The notes: generated by a model not told the origin, from the sequence alone. 64,000 nt of DNA from Candidatus Dormiibacterota bacterium (GCA_035566655.1 DATMQT010000102.1:4188-68187); one strand, 5' to 3'; shown: positions 27,871 to 51,140, counted from the first letter of the stretch. Numbers and translations: made by a program.

Positions 27871-28012
27871 ACTTCGATAAGTTTCGCGTCCATACGATGG
27901 GAGAAATTGCCAGATGCTCTCTCCTGAAAAAATACTCGGCGCGCGTTACCGAAGTAATTTTCGTCCTGGATTAGATTTCCTTTATTCTGACTTCGCAATA
28001 ATTCATCCCCCT

Positions 28013-28345
28013 ATGAAGAATTGGATCGCGGTTGCTTTATTTGGTCTTCTGCCAATCCTGATGTTCGCCCCCAACCCGGCTGCTGCCCAGCAGTCGTCTG
28101 AAGGCGCGCGCAAAGTTGCGACGAAGGTGACTCCGCAGTACCCCACTGTCGCCCGCCGGATGAACCTGCAAGGCAGCGTAAAAGTGGAAGTGCTGGTCGC
28201 GCCGAATGGCAGCGTAAAGTCCATCGAACTCAGGGGTGGCCATCCTATCCTTGCGGAAGCTGCGCAGAGCGCCGTGCGCCAGTGGAAGTGGGAGCCCGCA
28301 CCTCGCGAGACCCAGGAATCTGTCGAAATAAAATTCGCGCCCTAG
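28013..28345 (+). CDS. TonB C-terminal domain protein (small, secreted)
   Basis: Signal peptide, then PQYPTVARRMNLQGSVKVEVLVAPNGSV...AVRQWKWEP, typical of the TonB_C fold. Start at ATG 28013. Confidence 0.75.
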   Translation: MKNWIAVALFGLLPILMFAPNPAAAQQSSEGARKVATKVTPQYPTVARRMNLQGSVKVEVLVAPNGSVKSIELRGGHPILAEAAQSAVRQWKWEPAPRETQESVEIKFAP

Positions 28346-30651: not shown

Positions 30652-30693
30652 CTACGAAGATTTTCGTTGACACTACGAACACCTTCGTAGTAT
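30652..30693 (+). promoter_or_regulatory. two tandem dyads CTACGAA-N4-TTCGTWG overlapping a TTGACA / TAGTAT promoter (candidate BlaI operators)
   Basis: Dyad 1 at 30652-30669 (ctacgaagattttcgttg), TTGACA at 30667-30672, dyad 2 at 30673-30690 (ctacgaacaccttcgtag), TAGTAT at 30688-30693. The ATG is at 30705. Confidence 0.55.
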
Positions 30694-30704
30694 GGTCTCT
30701 TTCC

Positions 30705-31121
30705 ATGAAGCAAGCCCCGCAGAAACCTACCGCGTCGGAGCTGGAAATCCTTCGCGTTCTCTGGACCCGCGGCCCGTCCACGGTGCGCGAAGTACACGAC
30801 TCGCTGAACGAAAAACGGGCCATGGGCTACACCAGCGTGCTGAAGTTCCTGCAAATAATGACGGCAAAAGGCACGGTGCGGCGAAACGAAACCCAGAGGG
30901 CGCACGTCTATGAAGCATGCCTGCCGGCCGAGCAAACCAAGCGTCAGCTTGCCGGGGACATGCTGCAGCGCGTCTTCGAAGGCTCCGCCAGCCAGCTCAT
31001 GATGCATGCCCTGGCCGGCCGCAAAGCTTCGCGCGAAGAGATTGAAGAACTACGCCGCTTGCTGAATGAGCAAGAAAAGGAAGAACAAGAAATGGACGAA
31101 CACAAAAGGAGCCGGCGATGA
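30705..31121 (+). CDS. BlaI/MecI/CopY-family transcriptional repressor
   Basis: N-terminal winged helix, SELEILRVLWTRGPSTVREVHDSL...GYTSVLKFLQIMTAKG. Overlaps the next gene by 4 nt (ATGA). Confidence 0.9.
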   Translation: MKQAPQKPTASELEILRVLWTRGPSTVREVHDSLNEKRAMGYTSVLKFLQIMTAKGTVRRNETQRAHVYEACLPAEQTKRQLAGDMLQRVFEGSASQLMMHALAGRKASREEIEELRRLLNEQEKEEQEMDEHKRSRR

Positions 31122-32977
31122 CCACACTGACGAATTGGCTTTCCCCGAGCGCAATGCATTCCCTGGGCTGGACCCTGCTGCATTTTCTGTGGCAAGGAAC
31201 GGCCGTAGCGGCGCTGGCCGCGGTGCTGATGACGCTTTGCCGCCGCGCGTCTGCGCGCTACGCGCTGGCGGTGGGCGCACTCGTGCTGATGCTGGCTGCT
31301 CCGCTTGCCACATTCTTCGTTCTCACGTCGTCCGGCACAGCGGCTCCAGCGAATTCTCCCGCCGTGAAATCGGAGACGCCGATGAGCAATGTCGCAGCCA
31401 GAGCTTCGTCCGGATTCTCCCGCCTCTCACCCTCGCTCGACACTCTGCCCTGGCTGGTGGAAGCCTGGCTGCTCGGCGTCGCTTTCTTCAGCCTTCGTTC
31501 CGCCGGAGGATTCCTGCTGCTGGAACGCGAGCGCCGCAAACAGTCCGCAAGCGTGAACGATCGAGTGCTCGCGATTTGCCAGACGCTGCAACGCCAGCTT
31601 GGATTGACCCGGGCCGTCCGTTATTGCGAGTGCGCATGGCTGCAGGCGCCGGCGGTGATTGGCTGGCTCCGTCCCATCGTCCTGCTGCCCGTGACCGCCC
31701 TGACCGGACTTTCCGAGGAACAACTGCAGTTGGTGATCGTGCACGAACTGGCGCACATCCAGCGGCTCGATCCCTTTGTGAATGTTTTCCAGATTTCTGT
31801 GGAGACACTGCTCTTCTATCACCCGGCTGTGTGGTGGCTGAACAAGCGCATCCGTGCCGAACGCGAGCACTGCTGTGACGATATCGCCGTCTCTCTCTGT
31901 GGCAATCCGGTTGAATACGCCCGCGCACTCACTCTGATGGAAGAATGGCGCACCGCGCCGGCTCTGGCGATGGCGGTAAATCGTGGGCCGCTCTCCGAGC
32001 GCATCTTCCGCGTGCTCGGCCTGAAGTCGATCGGCGCCGGCACTCGCGGGATGGGGCTCACCGGTGGTCTGCTGTGCCTTACCGCTGCGCTGGTCGCAGG
32101 CAATGCCCTGCTCGGCGTCGCTTATCCAAAACCCATTGTGCACGCTGGCCAAATCGCGCTGGCACATTTTGGTTGGACCGCGCCTGCGTCACCGCAGTCA
32201 GCCCCTGCGCCCGCAGCCGCACCCACTCCGAAACCATCCCCCGCACGTCCCCAAGCCGCGCCGCTGCCAGCCGCTTCCGGCTCCTACATTGACGGCATGA
32301 AGGCCGCCGGCATTGGCGAGCTCACCGTCGACCAACTCATCGCCATGAAGATTCATAACGTCACGCCGGAATATGTCCGCGGATTCCACGAGCTGGGGCT
32401 GCATCCTGATGCTGACGAACTCGTGGCCATGCGCATCCACGGCGTGTCTCCTGAGTACGTGCACGACGTGCGCGGACTGGGCCTCAACCCTGATCAGGAT
32501 CAACTCGTCGCCATGAAGATTCATGGCATCGACGCAGAATACGTACGGGGCATGAAAGAAGCCGGGATTCACGCCGATGTCGACGAACTGGTCGCCTTGA
32601 GGATTCACGGAGCAACGCCTGGCGAAGTCCGGGGCCTTCACGAGCAGGGCTTGCAGCCCGACGCCGACAATCTGGTCGCCATGCGCATTCACAATGTAAC
32701 TCCCGAATATGTTCGGGACATCCGCGCTCTCGGGCTTAAGCCCACGGTCGACGATTTGGTCTCCATGCGCATTCACGGCGTGACGCCGGAGTACATCAAG
32801 GCTCTCCAAGCCGCGGGATTCAAGGTGGGGGTCGACGACATTGTTAGCGCCAGGATTCACGGAGTGACAGAAGATGTTATTAAAGACGCGCGCAAACATG
32901 GATTCAAGGATCTTGATCTCGACAAGCTGATCCGCCTCAAACAACTGGGAATCCTGGAATCGCCCGCTGACATTTAG
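31118..32977 (+). CDS. BlaR1-like M56 peptidase / signal transducer with a C-terminal 8 x 28-aa repeat array
   Basis: N-terminal TM segments and HELAHIQRLD (HExxH at nt 31742-31756). A further TM segment and a Pro/Ala-rich linker precede the repeats at aa 389-612. Confidence 0.85.
   Translation: MTTLTNWLSPSAMHSLGWTLLHFLWQGTAVAALAAVLMTLCRRASARYALAVGALVLMLAAPLATFFVLTSSGTAAPANSPAVKSETPMSNVAARASSGFSRLSPSLDTLPWLVEAWLLGVAFFSLRSAGGFLLLERERRKQSASVNDRVLAICQTLQRQLGLTRAVRYCECAWLQAPAVIGWLRPIVLLPVTALTGLSEEQLQLVIVHELAHIQRLDPFVNVFQISVETLLFYHPAVWWLNKRIRAEREHCCDDIAVSLCGNPVEYARALTLMEEWRTAPALAMAVNRGPLSERIFRVLGLKSIGAGTRGMGLTGGLLCLTAALVAGNALLGVAYPKPIVHAGQIALAHFGWTAPASPQSAPAPAAAPTPKPSPARPQAAPLPAASGSYIDGMKAAGIGELTVDQLIAMKIHNVTPEYVRGFHELGLHPDADELVAMRIHGVSPEYVHDVRGLGLNPDQDQLVAMKIHGIDAEYVRGMKEAGIHADVDELVALRIHGATPGEVRGLHEQGLQPDADNLVAMRIHNVTPEYVRDIRALGLKPTVDDLVSMRIHGVTPEYIKALQAAGFKVGVDDIVSARIHGVTEDVIKDARKHGFKDLDLDKLIRLKQLGILESPADI
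32282..32953 (+). repeat. coding tandem repeat, 8 units of 84 nt (28 aa, approx. YVRxhxxLGLxPDxDxLVAMRIHGVTPE)
   Basis: Units counted by hand in the translated sequence. The same unit recurs 7 times in the next gene (33345-33941). Confidence 0.85.
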
Positions 32978-32987
32978 GAAGACATTC

Positions 32988-33944
32988 ATGAGGAGAAGTT
33001 CTATGAGACTGACTCGAACCTGTGCTTTTATCGTATTCGCCTTCTGCCTGCTCTTCGCCGTGGTCAAGAACCACGCGGCAGACGTTCGCAGCGGAGACTG
33101 GACGATCCGCCACTCCGACGAAGCGGGCAAGGTTGAGTTCTCGCTGATCGAGCACCACCACGGCGGAAACTCAAACCACGAATCCGATTGGTCCATGAGT
33201 TCTTTTGCGGGCGTCGATTTCGCCAAGGCCGGCCGCCAGGATGTGCACTTCACCATTGCGCGCGACGCTGGCAAGATCGAGTGCGAGGGCTTCCTTAACA
33301 ACGGCGAAGGCGCAGGCATTTTTCACTTCCAGCCCGACCCCAACTACGCCGGCGAAATGCGCAAGATTGGATTCGACGTTGACGACGAGAAGCAGTACAG
33401 CATGGCGGTGCAGGATGTCAGCCTGGAATTTGCGCGTCAGATGAAGAACGAGCATCTCACCGATCTGGACACCGACACGCTGATCGCCTTCCGCATCTTC
33501 CGCGTGGACTCAGCCTTCATCGCAGACCTGCGCGCGGCCGGTCTCAAGATTTCGGACAGCGACAAGCTTGTCGCCTTCCGCATTCACGGCGTCACGCCGC
33601 AAATGATCCGCACTCTGCATCAAGCCGGCTACTCACCCGATGAAGACACGCTGATTGCCATGAGAATTCATGGTGCCACGCCGGAATTTGTGGAGGAACT
33701 CAAGAAACGCGGCTACGAGCACATCGACCTCGAACAGCTGATCGCCTTCAGAATCCACGGCGTTTCGCCGGACTTCATCGAAAAGCTGCAAAGTCTGGGC
33801 TACAAGCATCCGGATCCGGATGATCTGGTAGCGATGCGGATCCACAACGTCACTCCCGAATACATCAGCAACCTCCGCTCGCGCGGAATGCGCGATCTGA
33901 GCATCGACCAGCTGGTCAACATGCGGATTCACGGCATCGACTGA
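32988..33944 (+). CDS. secreted protein: His-rich N-domain plus 7 copies of the BlaR1-type 28-aa repeat
   Basis: Signal/TM segment (TCAFIVFAFCLLFAVV), an N-domain of about 90 aa (EHHHGGNSNHESDW), then LIAFRIHGV[TS]P..[IV]..L...G repeats to the C-terminus. Confidence 0.7.
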   Translation: MRRSSMRLTRTCAFIVFAFCLLFAVVKNHAADVRSGDWTIRHSDEAGKVEFSLIEHHHGGNSNHESDWSMSSFAGVDFAKAGRQDVHFTIARDAGKIECEGFLNNGEGAGIFHFQPDPNYAGEMRKIGFDVDDEKQYSMAVQDVSLEFARQMKNEHLTDLDTDTLIAFRIFRVDSAFIADLRAAGLKISDSDKLVAFRIHGVTPQMIRTLHQAGYSPDEDTLIAMRIHGATPEFVEELKKRGYEHIDLEQLIAFRIHGVSPDFIEKLQSLGYKHPDPDDLVAMRIHNVTPEYISNLRSRGMRDLSIDQLVNMRIHGID

Positions 33945-35663: not shown

Positions 35664-38348
35664 CTACTTCTTCAGCCCCGCCGTAAAATTCGTCACCACC
35701 GTCACCGATTGGCTCACCTGCTGCGAAACCCGGTCCAGCAGGATTTTCTTGCCGTCGGGGGAGACATCGTAGAAGACATTCGGCGCGGTCCAATTAGGGA
35801 CGAGGATTTGAGCGGCGCCGAATTGCAGGGCTCCGCCGGCATCCTTCACCGGAACCGCAGAAAGAGTGAACGTGGGGTCGAGGTAGTACAGCTCCTTGCC
35901 GTCCTTGCTCCACTGCGGAGCCGTTCCACCGTTGGCTGAGAGCTGCCACTTGCCCTGCCCGCCGCGGAAGGGCACCACATATACTTCGGGTCCACCGGAT
36001 TCATCCGACGTGTAGGCCAGCCAGCGGCCGTCCGGGGAAAGGTGGGCAAAGATGCCTCGCGGCAGGATTTGCCACGGTTTGCGCTCCCCTTCCAGGGGCA
36101 AAGCCCAGATCCCAGCCTCGCCAACCGCCATGCCCCGCGAATAAATCAGGTACTTGCCGTCCCGCGACCAATCGCTGGCCACGTCGATTTGGTCGTCCGT
36201 GAACAACAGTTCTTCCGCACCACTGCCATCGGAGGGTTTCCTCATGAGGTTCGAATGCCCGTTTCGATCGGAGGTATAGGCGATCCATTTGCCGTCCGGC
36301 GACCACACCGGGAATGTATTCGAAGCCGGACCGAAGGTTAATCGCGTTTTGATCCCGCGCGCCACCTCGAGCACCCACACGTCGTTCACACCGTTATCGA
36401 TTTGGAGAGCGATGCGGTCACCTTTCGGGGAGAGACGTGCGCTTAGCAGGTTGGTGAGCTTGTCGGCTACGGGGCTAAGCTGTTTTCCGGAGCGATCCAT
36501 CCACAGCAGCTGCCAATCGCCGGTACCCCCGCTGGCAAAAACCAGCAGGCCGTCACCGGAAGCCGAGGCGTCCATATGCCAGGTGCTGATGTCGTTGGCT
36601 ACGCCTTTGGCCACGCTCTGCGGCTCTTCGCTTAACCTTCCCGTGGCAGGGTCGAAGGGTTGTCCCATTAACTGGTCCCCGCGCGCGAACAGAAGATAAC
36701 CACTCCCATAAACGGGGTTGGATTGCGAGCGCAACAGTTCACGATTTTCCCGCCCATCCAGCGACCCGTAGAACACGGTATCGTTGGCTGCTTTGGAAGG
36801 GTCATGGTTGATGGCGAGATAGAGGAAATGCTTGCCATCGGGAAGGAAAAATGGCCAGCGGTGCGAGGTGTGCTGGGTGGTTTCGATCCTGGTCACAGGA
36901 ACCGGAGTTCCACCGCTTGCGCTCACTCGCATCAAAGCCGCTTGCGTGCCCGGAGAAAACAGGATCACTCCGCCCTGTCCCCAAGCGCCTCCGCGACCAA
37001 ATGGAGCGTCGGCCACCACCTGCGCCGAGCCGCCGTTGAGGTCGATCGTCTTCAGCTTGTTGTCGGCGAAGAATCCCAGCGAGCGGCTGTCGGGCGACCA
37101 GAAGGGAAAAATCGCATTCTCGGTGCCGGGCAGCATGTGTGCGTCCGGCAAGTTCATCGGGCGCACCCAGATTGCGTTCTTGCCGTCGGCGCCGGTCGCC
37201 GCGAACGCGATGGATGCACCGTCGGGCGACAGCACCGGCGGCCCCGCGGAATCTCCGATCAGATTGAGCGTGGTTTTTGCCGGAGGGTCAATGACCGTGC
37301 GGATGGCCTGCGCCGATTGTGCGGGGCGGTGGAGTAAGAAGCCAGTCGCCGCACCTAACGCAATCGCAACCAGCAAAGCCGCACCCCAACCAGCCTTTTC
37401 TCGCGGAGACGTTCCTCGCAACACCTCCGACGCCGGCACCGCGACCGCCGATCGATCCGACGCAATCCATTTCAGTTCCAGCTTGATATCGTGCGCCGCG
37501 AGATAACGATCCTCCGGATTCTTCTGCAAACACGTGGTCACCACGTGCTCAAATGCAGGCGGCGTTTGAGGCTTGAGGGCGCCGATCGATTCCGGGTCTG
37601 CTTCGAGAATGGACGATGCAAGCGAGATTTGACTCTTCCCCGAAAACGGCCGCTTCCCTGCCACCATCTCGTAAAGCACAGCACCGAAGGCGAAGATGTC
37701 TGAACGCGCGTCCGCTTCTTTTCCTTCGATCTGCTCCGGAGACATGTACTGAATCGTGCCAATGATGCTGCCTGCGGTGGTCAGCGGACTCAATGGGCTG
37801 GGCCCGCTCATCGTAGCCGCGGCAGTAAACGAAGGCGGCGCGGATCCCGATCCAGAAGCCGGAGCCGTAGTGCCCAGCGGCTTCGCCAGACCAAAGTCCA
37901 TCAGCTTCGCGCCGCCCGCCGTGAGCATGATGTTCCCCGGCTTCAAGTCACGATGCACAATGCCGTGACGATGCGCCACGGCCAGCGCCTCGGCCACAGC
38001 AATGCCAATCTTGAAGACTTCGGCCAACGGCACCGAGCCTTTTTTCAGACGTTCGGCCAGAGTTTCCCCCTCCAGAAACTCCATCACCAGATAATCGGCG
38101 CCATTCTGCGAGCCGATGTCATACAACTGGCAAATGTGGGGATGGTTCAGCGACGAGATCGCTCTCCCTTCGCGCTCCATGCGCTGCTTCAGTTCCGGAG
38201 AAGAAGAAAGATGCGAGGCGAGAACTTTGATCGCCACGGTGCGATCGAGGCGTGTGTCCAGAGCACGGTAAACTTCTCCCATGCCGCCTGCGCCCAGCGG
38301 AGACTGGATTTCGTAGGGACCTAATTTGGTGCCAGCGGTGAGGGGCAT
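35664..38348 (-). CDS. Ser/Thr protein kinase fused to a TolB-like (WD40-like) beta-propeller
   Basis: Kinase motifs GAGGMGEVY, HRDLKPGNIM, DFGLAK and YMSPEQ. One TM segment, then repeated FSPDG/WSPDG propeller blades. Confidence 0.9.
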   Translation of the reverse strand: MPLTAGTKLGPYEIQSPLGAGGMGEVYRALDTRLDRTVAIKVLASHLSSSPELKQRMEREGRAISSLNHPHICQLYDIGSQNGADYLVMEFLEGETLAERLKKGSVPLAEVFKIGIAVAEALAVAHRHGIVHRDLKPGNIMLTAGGAKLMDFGLAKPLGTTAPASGSGSAPPSFTAAATMSGPSPLSPLTTAGSIIGTIQYMSPEQIEGKEADARSDIFAFGAVLYEMVAGKRPFSGKSQISLASSILEADPESIGALKPQTPPAFEHVVTTCLQKNPEDRYLAAHDIKLELKWIASDRSAVAVPASEVLRGTSPREKAGWGAALLVAIALGAATGFLLHRPAQSAQAIRTVIDPPAKTTLNLIGDSAGPPVLSPDGASIAFAATGADGKNAIWVRPMNLPDAHMLPGTENAIFPFWSPDSRSLGFFADNKLKTIDLNGGSAQVVADAPFGRGGAWGQGGVILFSPGTQAALMRVSASGGTPVPVTRIETTQHTSHRWPFFLPDGKHFLYLAINHDPSKAANDTVFYGSLDGRENRELLRSQSNPVYGSGYLLFARGDQLMGQPFDPATGRLSEEPQSVAKGVANDISTWHMDASASGDGLLVFASGGTGDWQLLWMDRSGKQLSPVADKLTNLLSARLSPKGDRIALQIDNGVNDVWVLEVARGIKTRLTFGPASNTFPVWSPDGKWIAYTSDRNGHSNLMRKPSDGSGAEELLFTDDQIDVASDWSRDGKYLIYSRGMAVGEAGIWALPLEGERKPWQILPRGIFAHLSPDGRWLAYTSDESGGPEVYVVPFRGGQGKWQLSANGGTAPQWSKDGKELYYLDPTFTLSAVPVKDAGGALQFGAAQILVPNWTAPNVFYDVSPDGKKILLDRVSQQVSQSVTVVTNFTAGLKK

Positions 38349-50279: not shown

Positions 50280-51140
50280 ATGGGAAACACCTTCAAGACT
50301 GCGTTCCTGCTGAGCGCACTAACGCTGCTGCTGATGTTCTTCGGCCAATATTTTGGCGGCCAGAATGGGATGTTCCTCGCCCTGGCCTTCGCCGCCGTCA
50401 TGAACTTCACCGCCTACTTCTTCTCCGACAAGATCGCGCTATCGATGTACCGCGCCCAGCCGGTGACGCGCGAGCAATTGCCGCGCGCCTACCAGATCGT
50501 CGAGCGCCTCACCCAGAAGATCGGCATCCCTATGCCGAAGATTTATGTCATCCCAAACGAGTCCCCGAACGCCTTCGCCACGGGACGCAACCCCAGTCAC
50601 GCCTCAGTAGCCGTCACGCATGGGATTCTGGGTTTACTGAATGACGAAGAACTCGAAGGCGTGCTGGCCCACGAACTGGGCCACGTGAACAACCGCGACA
50701 TCCTGATCAGCTCTGTAGCGGCAACCATCGCGGGCGCGATCACTATGCTGGCCAGCATGGGACGCTTCGCCATGATCTTCGGCGGCTACGGCGGAGGAGG
50801 ACGCGACCGCCGTGGTGGAGGACTCACGGCACTGTTCATGCTGATCGTGGCACCCATCGCCGCCAGCCTGATTCAGCTTGCCGTCTCACGTTCGCGCGAG
50901 TATCAGGCCGACGCCACCGGAGCGCACTTCACCGGCAATCCCTACGCCCTGGCCAGCGCCTTGCAGAAGCTCGACGCCTACTCGCGCCGCGTGCCCATGC
51001 AAGCCACGCCGTCGACCGCGCACTTGTTCATCATCCAGCCGCTGCTGGGGATAAACTTCGGCGGCCTGTTTTCAACCCATCCCCCGATCGCCAAACGCAT
51101 CGAGCGGCTGACGGGGCGCCCCGCGGAGTTCATGCAGTAG
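50280..51140 (+). CDS. htpX: zinc metalloprotease HtpX (M48B)
   Basis: HELGHVNNRD, EYQADATGA, FSTHPPIAKRIERL, 4 TM segments. Confidence 0.92.
   Translation: MGNTFKTAFLLSALTLLLMFFGQYFGGQNGMFLALAFAAVMNFTAYFFSDKIALSMYRAQPVTREQLPRAYQIVERLTQKIGIPMPKIYVIPNESPNAFATGRNPSHASVAVTHGILGLLNDEELEGVLAHELGHVNNRDILISSVAATIAGAITMLASMGRFAMIFGGYGGGGRDRRGGGLTALFMLIVAPIAASLIQLAVSRSREYQADATGAHFTGNPYALASALQKLDAYSRRVPMQATPSTAHLFIIQPLLGINFGGLFSTHPPIAKRIERLTGRPAEFMQ

Follow-up and report, generated by a model that had tools for sequence, protein, structure and literature searches.

What would a BlaR1-like protease detect when its predicted extracytoplasmic end is an array of short helical repeats, and what is the role of the adjoining gene, which encodes a secreted protein carrying matching repeats? 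This question is raised by a three-gene locus in a 64,000-nucleotide stretch of DNA from Candidatus Dormiibacterota bacterium (GCA_035566655.1 DATMQT010000102.1:4188-68187), hereafter the window, in which positions are counted from the first letter. The locus encodes a BlaI-type repressor, an M56 metalloprotease that we call R, and a secreted protein that we call S. Our comparative analysis led us to propose a self-regulated proteolytic switch of the BlaI/BlaR1 type in which the sensor is split between R and S, a reading to which we give about an even chance and whose supports and rivals are discussed below.

The first finding of note is that the sensor module is complete in S and reduced to its repeats in R, so that S is more than the paralogue with matching repeats that a preliminary description of the locus, made from the sequence alone, had seen in it. 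In R, the protease part is followed by a Pro/Ala-rich linker of ~50 residues that is predicted to be disordered (AlphaFold predicted local distance difference test score, pLDDT, <50), and then by eight units with an exact 28-residue period, the last of them degenerate. The linker and the 8 x 28-residue units described earlier are thus confirmed, and the array continues to nt 32971. S, whose residues are numbered throughout according to the 318-aa form starting at ATG 32988 unless the 313-aa form is named, begins with its single hydrophobic segment, a signal peptide extending to approximately residue 30 (likely cleavage NHA/AD), and continues with an N-terminal domain of ~90 residues that contains EHHHGGNSNHESDW; open reading frame (ORF), hydrophobic segment and sequence agree with the preliminary description on both elements. 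This domain, which we term SN, is modeled with six β-strands (residues 34-42, 48-57, 60-69, 83-91, 95-104 and 107-116; pLDDT 75-92) and has the family-wide motifs G-x-W, RDAG, EG and G-x-G-x-F-x-F-x-P. Its description as His-rich stands for one loop (residues 55-68) and not for the family, because that loop is conserved in close orthologues only. Similarly, the seven copies of the R unit originally seen in S are found as seven two-helix units in the AlphaFold model (pLDDT 90-96), but in sequence only six are clear and one, the first, is degenerate, with a period of 29 rather than 28 residues. The R array (pLDDT 85-93) has two 9-residue helices per unit, and both arrays are confidently predicted to be two-helix solenoids. 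A hidden Markov model (HMM) of the repeat unit, REP, which was built only from unrelated database representatives and is independent of R and S, matches R with E=1.2e-89 and S with E=1.4e-76, while the corresponding SN model matches S with E=1.4e-63. The repeat has the consensus LKAAGYDDLDADELVAFRIHGVTPEFIR with a 28/29-residue period. TRF (Tandem Repeats Finder) detected no DNA-level tandem repeat over the units of R and S, which are therefore old and maintained at the protein level.

Together, SN and the 28-aa repeat would define a sensor module family that has not been described before. The repeat produced only sub-threshold or spurious matches in Pfam and NCBIfam (to HHH_5, Glycos_trans_3N, Skp1 and UBA-like helical hairpins), PDB sequence and profile searches with the repeat and SN returned nothing significant, and Foldseek against the PDB gave best E-values of 0.013 for S and 0.24 for R, with TM <0.2. 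The repeat, which the preliminary description did not assign to a named domain family, thus has no characterised match in any of these searches. The nearest shapes, none of them significant, were lipocalin-like for SN (E of at least 0.013) and, for the repeats, TAL-effector/PPR solenoids, which came first among both the Foldseek and the PDB-profile matches. TAL-effector and PPR proteins resemble R and S in being built of tandem units of ~28-35 residues with two short helices each; however, homology is not detectable (E 0.03-0.5, TM <0.2), and they bind nucleic acids inside cells, whereas the R/S array is exported. HHH_5 (PF14520) was rejected as the family of the repeat: R reaches 18.3 bits (cutoff 27) without a single significant stretch, and the few orthologues at 30-32 bits get there only by summing over repeats, likewise without one. 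We also ruled out a metal-binding histidine ladder formed by the RIHG of successive units, since R orthologues often have Gln at this position and conservation of the His-rich loop in S does not extend across the family. The replacement is common in R orthologues (KIQG; alignment A4), and S orthologues keep the His, so that the two arrays differ consistently at this residue. Finally, a LytB/IspH label for S (PF02401, 27.8 bits, cutoff 24.5) was dismissed, as the match is confined to profile positions 40-80 of ~267 and reappears from one repeat to the next, and scores with the NCBIfam models for IspH fall far short of the cutoffs. We propose to define the family by RDAG and G-x-G-x-F-x-F-x-P followed by at least three units of the 28/29-aa repeat; S fits this definition, and R has the repeats without the β core.

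The distribution of this module is the main argument that S and R function together, because the module is fused to the protease in some genomes and separate in others. An exhaustive search with S returned 3858 clusters at 50% identity (E≤1e-3), with 871 clusters at E≤1e-30. Scoring the best 150 of these 3858 representatives, plus R and S, with M56, SN and REP HMMs gave 72 fused M56+SN+REP proteins, 18 with M56+REP only, 57 free SN+REP proteins and 5 fragments. SN and repeats are thus fused in 72 of the 90 M56 members, 18 of 90 have repeats only, as R does, and every long protein of this census that was run against Pfam is an M56 peptidase. It follows that the usual sensor is a whole SN+REP module fused to M56, that R is a minority form and that S is the free complete module. 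The gene neighborhoods are complementary. All six fused loci with downstream sequence (L084, L206, L207, L208, L210 and L211) have a BlaI gene upstream and none has an S-like gene downstream. Among repeats-only M56 genes, an SN+REP gene follows in 29 of 32 metagenomic cases—contigs found via a degenerate MRIHGVTPEF motif, counting M56+REP genes with downstream room—and an S-like gene follows in all three distant representatives (L209, L213 and L214). For these diverse loci only, the contrast is 32/35 versus 0/6 (Fisher p=1.9e-5). In addition, the order BlaI, M56+REP without SN, SN+REP occurs in 81/81 orthologous loci, i.e., L001 and 80 species-level genomes that carry an S orthologue; 68 of them are clean, and the others are frameshift-split or truncated with a consistent order. 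The downstream paralogue is therefore syntenic with M56-repeat genes. As for the putative three-component arrangement suggested in the preliminary description, it gains support from comparative genomics: most relatives carry the β domain fused to M56, and an adjoining S gene is seen only where the M56 protein lacks that domain.

The remainder of the locus follows the plan of BlaI/BlaR1 systems. The BlaI and M56 module identified earlier is indeed present, with the repressor matching PF03965 over profile positions 2-115 of 115 (98.5 bits, cutoff 22.6, E=4e-28) and R matching PF05569 over residues 29-296 (105.3 bits, cutoff 31, E=4.6e-30). The overlap noted between the two genes amounts to 4 nt, ATGA, shared by the blaI stop and the R start. 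Hydropathy and the positive-inside rule place four transmembrane (TM) segments of R at residues ~20-41, 50-68, 117-135 and 314-335. The HELAH motif, which had been recognized before, occupies residues 209-213 (nt 31742-31756) within the large loop that joins TM3 to TM4 and carries positive charge, and is followed by E250-x3-D254; 36 orthologues show no variation at H209, E210, H213, E250 and D254. We took the HExxH...ExxxD definition for M56 from the PvmSR preprint (bioRxiv 10.64898/2026.08.03.742534). These features strongly support R as a four-TM M56 zinc protease. Equally strong support, from hydropathy with the positive-inside rule and from the signal peptide on the free-standing copy of the module, exists for an array facing the outside of the cytoplasmic membrane, which matches BlaR1 topology. 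The Foldseek result for the M56 part carries no meaning, because pLDDT is <50 over R residues 1-387. In line with the preliminary description, there is no β-lactam sensor: the PF00905 transpeptidase domain is absent in a Pfam scan of R, and the NCBIfam models blaR1_generic (79.9 versus 400, protease part only) and sensor_BlaR1 and sensor_MecR1 (16-24 versus 1200, residues 112-258 only) fall far below their cutoffs. Likewise, the repressor scores below the NCBIfam equivalog cutoffs for CopY_TcrY (57 versus 121.95) and BlaI_of_BCL (55.9 versus 180), and reaches 27-29 bits against a cutoff of 250 for the MecI models. As judged by these profiles, it belongs to the BlaI/MecI/CopY family and is none of the named BlaI, MecI and CopY regulators. 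Past the Pfam domain, its acidic, Lys-rich tail (EQEKEEQEMDEHK) is encoded by a 15-nt tandem repeat of 2.7 copies (31071-31110).

The three genes evolve at different rates. Mean identity to the window proteins over 63 complete loci is highest for BlaI (86%), followed by the β domain and the repeats of S (81% each), the M56 part of R (73%), the R repeats (60%) and the R linker, the fastest-evolving segment (45%). The S repeats are more conserved than the R repeats in 62/63 loci, and the number of HMM-detected units is six for S in 62/63 loci and five to nine for R. S is thus the constrained partner, and the plasticity lies in the R array. A fast-evolving array of variable length might also be expected if it were a spacer or scaffold, which leads to a reading with no signaling link, in which the R array is an envelope anchor or spacer, for instance one reaching the cell wall or the outer membrane on its Pro/Ala linker in TonB-like fashion, and S is a paralogue that happens to share the transcript. 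Envelope-spanning M56 proteins are common: among ~15,000 M56 proteins in InterPro, a C-terminal TonB_C domain is the second most common architecture, after proteins without an identifiable C-terminal domain (PMC13492132). However, gene order is strict over ~80 species and distant lineages, R and S overlap at start and stop codons in several loci, the complementarity statistics oppose coincidence, and R orthologues maintain the repeat's core positions. We regard the absence of any link as very improbable.

How the operon is controlled can be predicted from its promoter. A sigma-70-like promoter lies 5' of blaI (TTGACA, 18 nt, TATGGT; 10/12 matches in a promoter scan) and is covered by two operator-like dyads, the first 21 nt upstream of the second and coincident with the region start chosen in the preliminary description (30652). 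TACGAA-N4-TTCGTA occurs twice in the window, both times at this promoter. The pair is found in 74 of 79 orthologous loci and a single dyad in the remaining five, with invariant half-sites and a 4-nt spacer that is free to vary, and all 153 dyad matches in 973 kb of orthologous locus DNA occupy the blaI-promoter position. A TACGAA-type dyad is also present in the majority of distant systems, both fused and split, and the Bacteroidota locus has another palindrome. Conservation of the two dyads around a spacer that varies, and at one position only, is strong comparative evidence that BlaI autoregulates the operon through the two predicted operators. Their TACGAA half-site is unlike that of BlaI/MecI operators, which is of the TACA/TGTA type. 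In the fused-type system of P0255, a second TACGAA-N4-TTCGTA-like dyad pair with the same 21-nt spacing (L084:1878-1914) lies 5' of a MacB_PCD/FtsX permease gene, beside a divergent PadR gene, and may mark an additional regulated gene.

By this analysis, S would be the sole non-regulatory gene known under the blaI-promoter operator, which is pertinent to another explanation, namely that S is a regulated effector: the R array would detect the ligand alone, and exported S would bind, sequester or handle it in the periplasm. This has a parallel in BlaR1 and MecR1, whose sensor domains share homology with the very penicillin-binding enzymes that those systems induce. It accommodates the absence of other operator copies in the window and in 973 kb of flanks, the higher conservation of S relative to the R array, which would be natural if S had a function of its own, the existence of orphan S-like proteins without an M56 partner, and the locus L213:5404-7638, in which a single repeats-only M56 gene precedes a pair of different S-like genes encoding 276 and 438 aa. 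What an effector role leaves unexplained is the complementarity between β domain and S gene (0/6 versus 32/35), and fused systems without an S-like output gene imply that S is not a general output of this sensor class. We therefore consider it unlikely, although it is the strongest of the alternatives.

Our preferred reading, a sensor split between R and S, can be formulated as follows. BlaI would repress the three-gene operon at the two TACGAA-N4-TTCGTA dyads over its promoter, and R would display a 28-aa-repeat solenoid outside the membrane on its flexible Pro/Ala linker. The R lineage would have retained only the fast-evolving, length-variable array, the complete module being provided by S, a separate Sec-exported protein from the same transcript that would supply the β domain in trans. 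S probably associates with the R array, via repeat-repeat or β-domain-repeat contacts, and may carry the ligand signal that switches on the M56 protease. The active protease would then cleave BlaI, so that expression of BlaI, R and S rises together. S would thereby serve as a co-sensor while also being the one operon product that is not a regulator. That S docks on the R array, or competes with it, is what we infer here from comparative genomics. A more general formulation—that the module is a widespread extracytoplasmic ligand-binding domain and that the operon is the first three-component BlaIR system, with an M56 protease needing S as a co-sensor in trans—is one to which we give slightly less than an even chance.

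The same wiring is compatible with S acting as a feedback inhibitor or decoy that holds the R protease off or titrates the ligand, the signal removing or saturating S and newly induced S resetting the switch. This was one of two options in the preliminary description. Negative feedback would be expected to be wired in this way, with S co-induced with the sensor from an autoregulated promoter; the matching repeats are a plausible homotypic docking surface, and there are analogies in CpxP with CpxA and in the periplasmic repeat protein ExoR with ExoS. Set against this, the module is covalently part of the sensor in fused relatives, which better fits a positive sensing role, and S and the R array show no charge complementarity. 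We consider an inhibitor improbable, and neither it nor an effector alone explains the complementarity.

Several observations weigh against a split sensor. First, three of 35 repeats-only M56 genes have no adjoining S gene, and of the 59 S-like genes whose upstream context is usable, 15 are orphans that no family gene precedes, so the module can work alone, which fits an effector role too. The neighbors of these orphans, which are housekeeping genes or have no Pfam match, offer no functional hint. Second, the R array and S are both acidic (pI ~5.2-5.6); electrostatic docking of one on the other is thus unsupported. Third, R has kept its repeats, and the split is therefore not a simple gene fission. 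Fourth, the nearest neighbors of free and fused β domains are mostly, not always, of their own kind, so a functional divergence between free and fused forms is conceivable. Fifth, the neighborhood genes give no hint of a physiological output.

Comparison with known systems highlights important similarities and differences. The locus resembles BlaI/BlaR1 and MecI/MecR1 of Staphylococcus aureus and Bacillus licheniformis in having a PF03965 repressor translationally coupled to a four-TM PF05569 protease with HExxH between TM3 and TM4, a sensor outside the membrane after TM4, palindromic operators over the promoter and self-regulation. Unlike them, it has no transpeptidase domain but a helical-repeat array on a ~50-aa disordered linker, a third, secreted component in the operon and a host in the Gram-negative phylum Acidobacteriota. 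By analogy of function only, sensors whose own detection domain is reduced and that are controlled by a separate extracytoplasmic or membrane partner within the regulated gene set are known in ExoR-ExoS/ChvI, in which ExoR is a secreted helical-repeat protein, CpxP-CpxA and BceAB-BceS. These differ from the locus in that there is no homology, the sensors are histidine kinases rather than proteases, and the repeat of the partner is not found in the sensor. Atypical BlaIR systems are represented by CenIR of C. difficile (PMC13492132), PvmSR of P. aeruginosa (bioRxiv 10.64898/2026.08.03.742534) and mycobacterial BlaIR, which also combine BlaI and M56 without β-lactam sensing and, like R, fall into the largest InterPro class, that of M56 proteins whose C-terminal region has no identifiable domain. 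The sensor domain is wholly missing in PvmSR (bioRxiv 10.64898/2026.08.03.742534) and also, according to the passage of that preprint that cites them, in the mycobacterial systems. The C termini of these proteins are either short and largely unstructured or nonexistent, whereas the locus has a large array that is confidently predicted to be folded and belongs to a family of thousands of clusters, and a secreted partner. Across the M56 family, true β-lactam sensors account for ~6% of proteins (PMC13492132, 2026), and ~96% have a BlaI-like gene no more than five genes away (PMC13492132). True homologues of R and S, with the same M56 domain, β domain and repeat, are the fused M56+β-domain+repeat proteins (e.g., P0255, P0290, and P0253 from Saprospiraceae/Lewinellaceae), which have a BlaI gene upstream and mostly share the TACGAA operator. 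They differ in having the whole sensor in one polypeptide and no S gene next to it, and they too are uncharacterised, bearing no name other than "M56 family metallopeptidase." We found no description in the literature of the 28-aa repeat or of an accessory protein for an M56 sensor.

The locus thus belongs to the BlaIR class and combines a sensor module not described before with a probable third component. As a consequence, a large part of the M56 class without an identifiable C-terminal domain would gain a defined, foldable sensor module, and the fused and split forms amount to a natural experiment that predicts an interaction between S and R. If this is true, an accessory-protein-dependent mode would be added to BlaIR signaling, a split-sensor design being undescribed for regulated-proteolysis switches, and there would be a handle on how the abundant Acidobacteriota of peat and soil monitor their envelope or surroundings. 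On a practical level, S orthologues are mislabeled IspH/LytB in public records. Many of them cross the LYTB threshold as S does, and at least one record (P0027) is named "IspH," an annotation artefact that arises because a short stretch of the LYTB profile fits several repeats.

The features of the locus are collected in Table 1. Its three ORFs are co-directional, the third spanning 32988-33944 if read from its first ATG. The S gene had been placed 10 nt past R, which corresponds to that ATG; the gap is more likely 25 nt, with a start most likely at ATG 33003. This is based on a Shine-Dalgarno sequence, AGGAG, at 32991-32995 (7 nt 5' of ATG 33003), on M6 being the first invariant residue among orthologues and on the 313-aa form in database annotation.

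Table 1. Predicted features of the blaI-R-S locus, in window coordinates
Feature	Coordinates	Strand	Basis
Promoter with two BlaI-type operator-like dyads	30653-30696	+	Promoter scan, conservation
Dyad 1, TACGAAGATTTTCGTT	30653-30668	+	One mismatch; overlaps -35 box
-35 box TTGACA	30667-30672	+	Promoter scan
Dyad 2, TACGAACACCTTCGTA	30674-30689	+	Perfect TACGAA-CACC-TTCGTA, between hexamers
-10 box TATGGT	30691-30696	+	Promoter scan
blaI, 138 aa, BlaI/MecI/CopY-family winged-helix repressor	30705-31121	+	PF03965
R gene, M56 protease and repeats	31118-32977	+	ORF, PF05569
R, M56 membrane metalloprotease part, residues 1-335	31118-32122	+	PF05569, hydropathy
R, Pro/Ala-rich linker, residues 336-388	32123-32281	+	Sequence; model without secondary structure
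R, array of 8 x 28-aa two-helix repeats, residues 389-618	32282-32971	+	Unit table, unit HMM, AlphaFold
S gene, secreted protein, 313 aa	33003-33944	+	ORF, Shine-Dalgarno; alternative start ATG 32988 = 318 aa
S, N-terminal β domain SN, residues 33-119	33084-33344	+	AlphaFold strands, family alignment
S, seven two-helix repeat units, residues 120-318	33345-33941	+	Unit table, AlphaFold, unit HMM

S has ~2664 database relatives, and the closest 120 are all >80% identical. The closest relatives come from metagenome-assembled genomes (MAGs) of Terriglobia labeled Ca. Sulfotelmatobacter, Ca. Acidoferrum or Acidobacteriaceae. Among the 80 genomes nearest to the window, 79 are labeled Acidobacteriota (Terriglobia) and one (L013) Eremiobacteraeota, and the NCBI record with identical proteins (P0001 and P0121) is labeled "Candidatus Dormibacteraeota bacterium." In view of the labels of the relatives, the phylum label of the source bin (Dormibacteraeota) looks doubtful, and we take the host to be a soil acidobacterium. 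One fused representative is from Saprospiraceae/Lewinellaceae, and the module therefore also occurs in Bacteroidota. In a number of the orthologous loci, R is broken up into between two and four overlapping ORFs (L011, L018, L024, L028, L039, L041, L057, L062, L070 and L075, the last with S split as well); these splits, in some ten MAGs, are probably assembly frameshift errors rather than true pseudogenes.

Further observations concern other members of the family and the surroundings of the locus. A 564-aa protein of β-lactamase fold (PF00144) is encoded 270 nt past one fused-type system, on the same strand (L207:3738-5432), and could be the output gene of that system. A subfamily of secreted β-domain+repeat proteins of 345-415 aa (L099, L121, L124, L126, L132, L178 and L190) has the N-terminal signature GTW...ERW-x-S-[LI]-[QE]-L; none has an M56 or BlaI neighbor, and nearby genes are housekeeping or unannotated. 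Elsewhere in the window there are no further copies of the module or members of the regulon, and a weak M56-like match at 50280-51140 is a false one to an M48 (HtpX-like) peptidase. Two neighboring genes appear unrelated to the locus: one encodes a small protein with a TonB_C domain alone (27914-28345), and the other a Ser/Thr kinase fused to PD40 β-propeller repeats (35664-38348).

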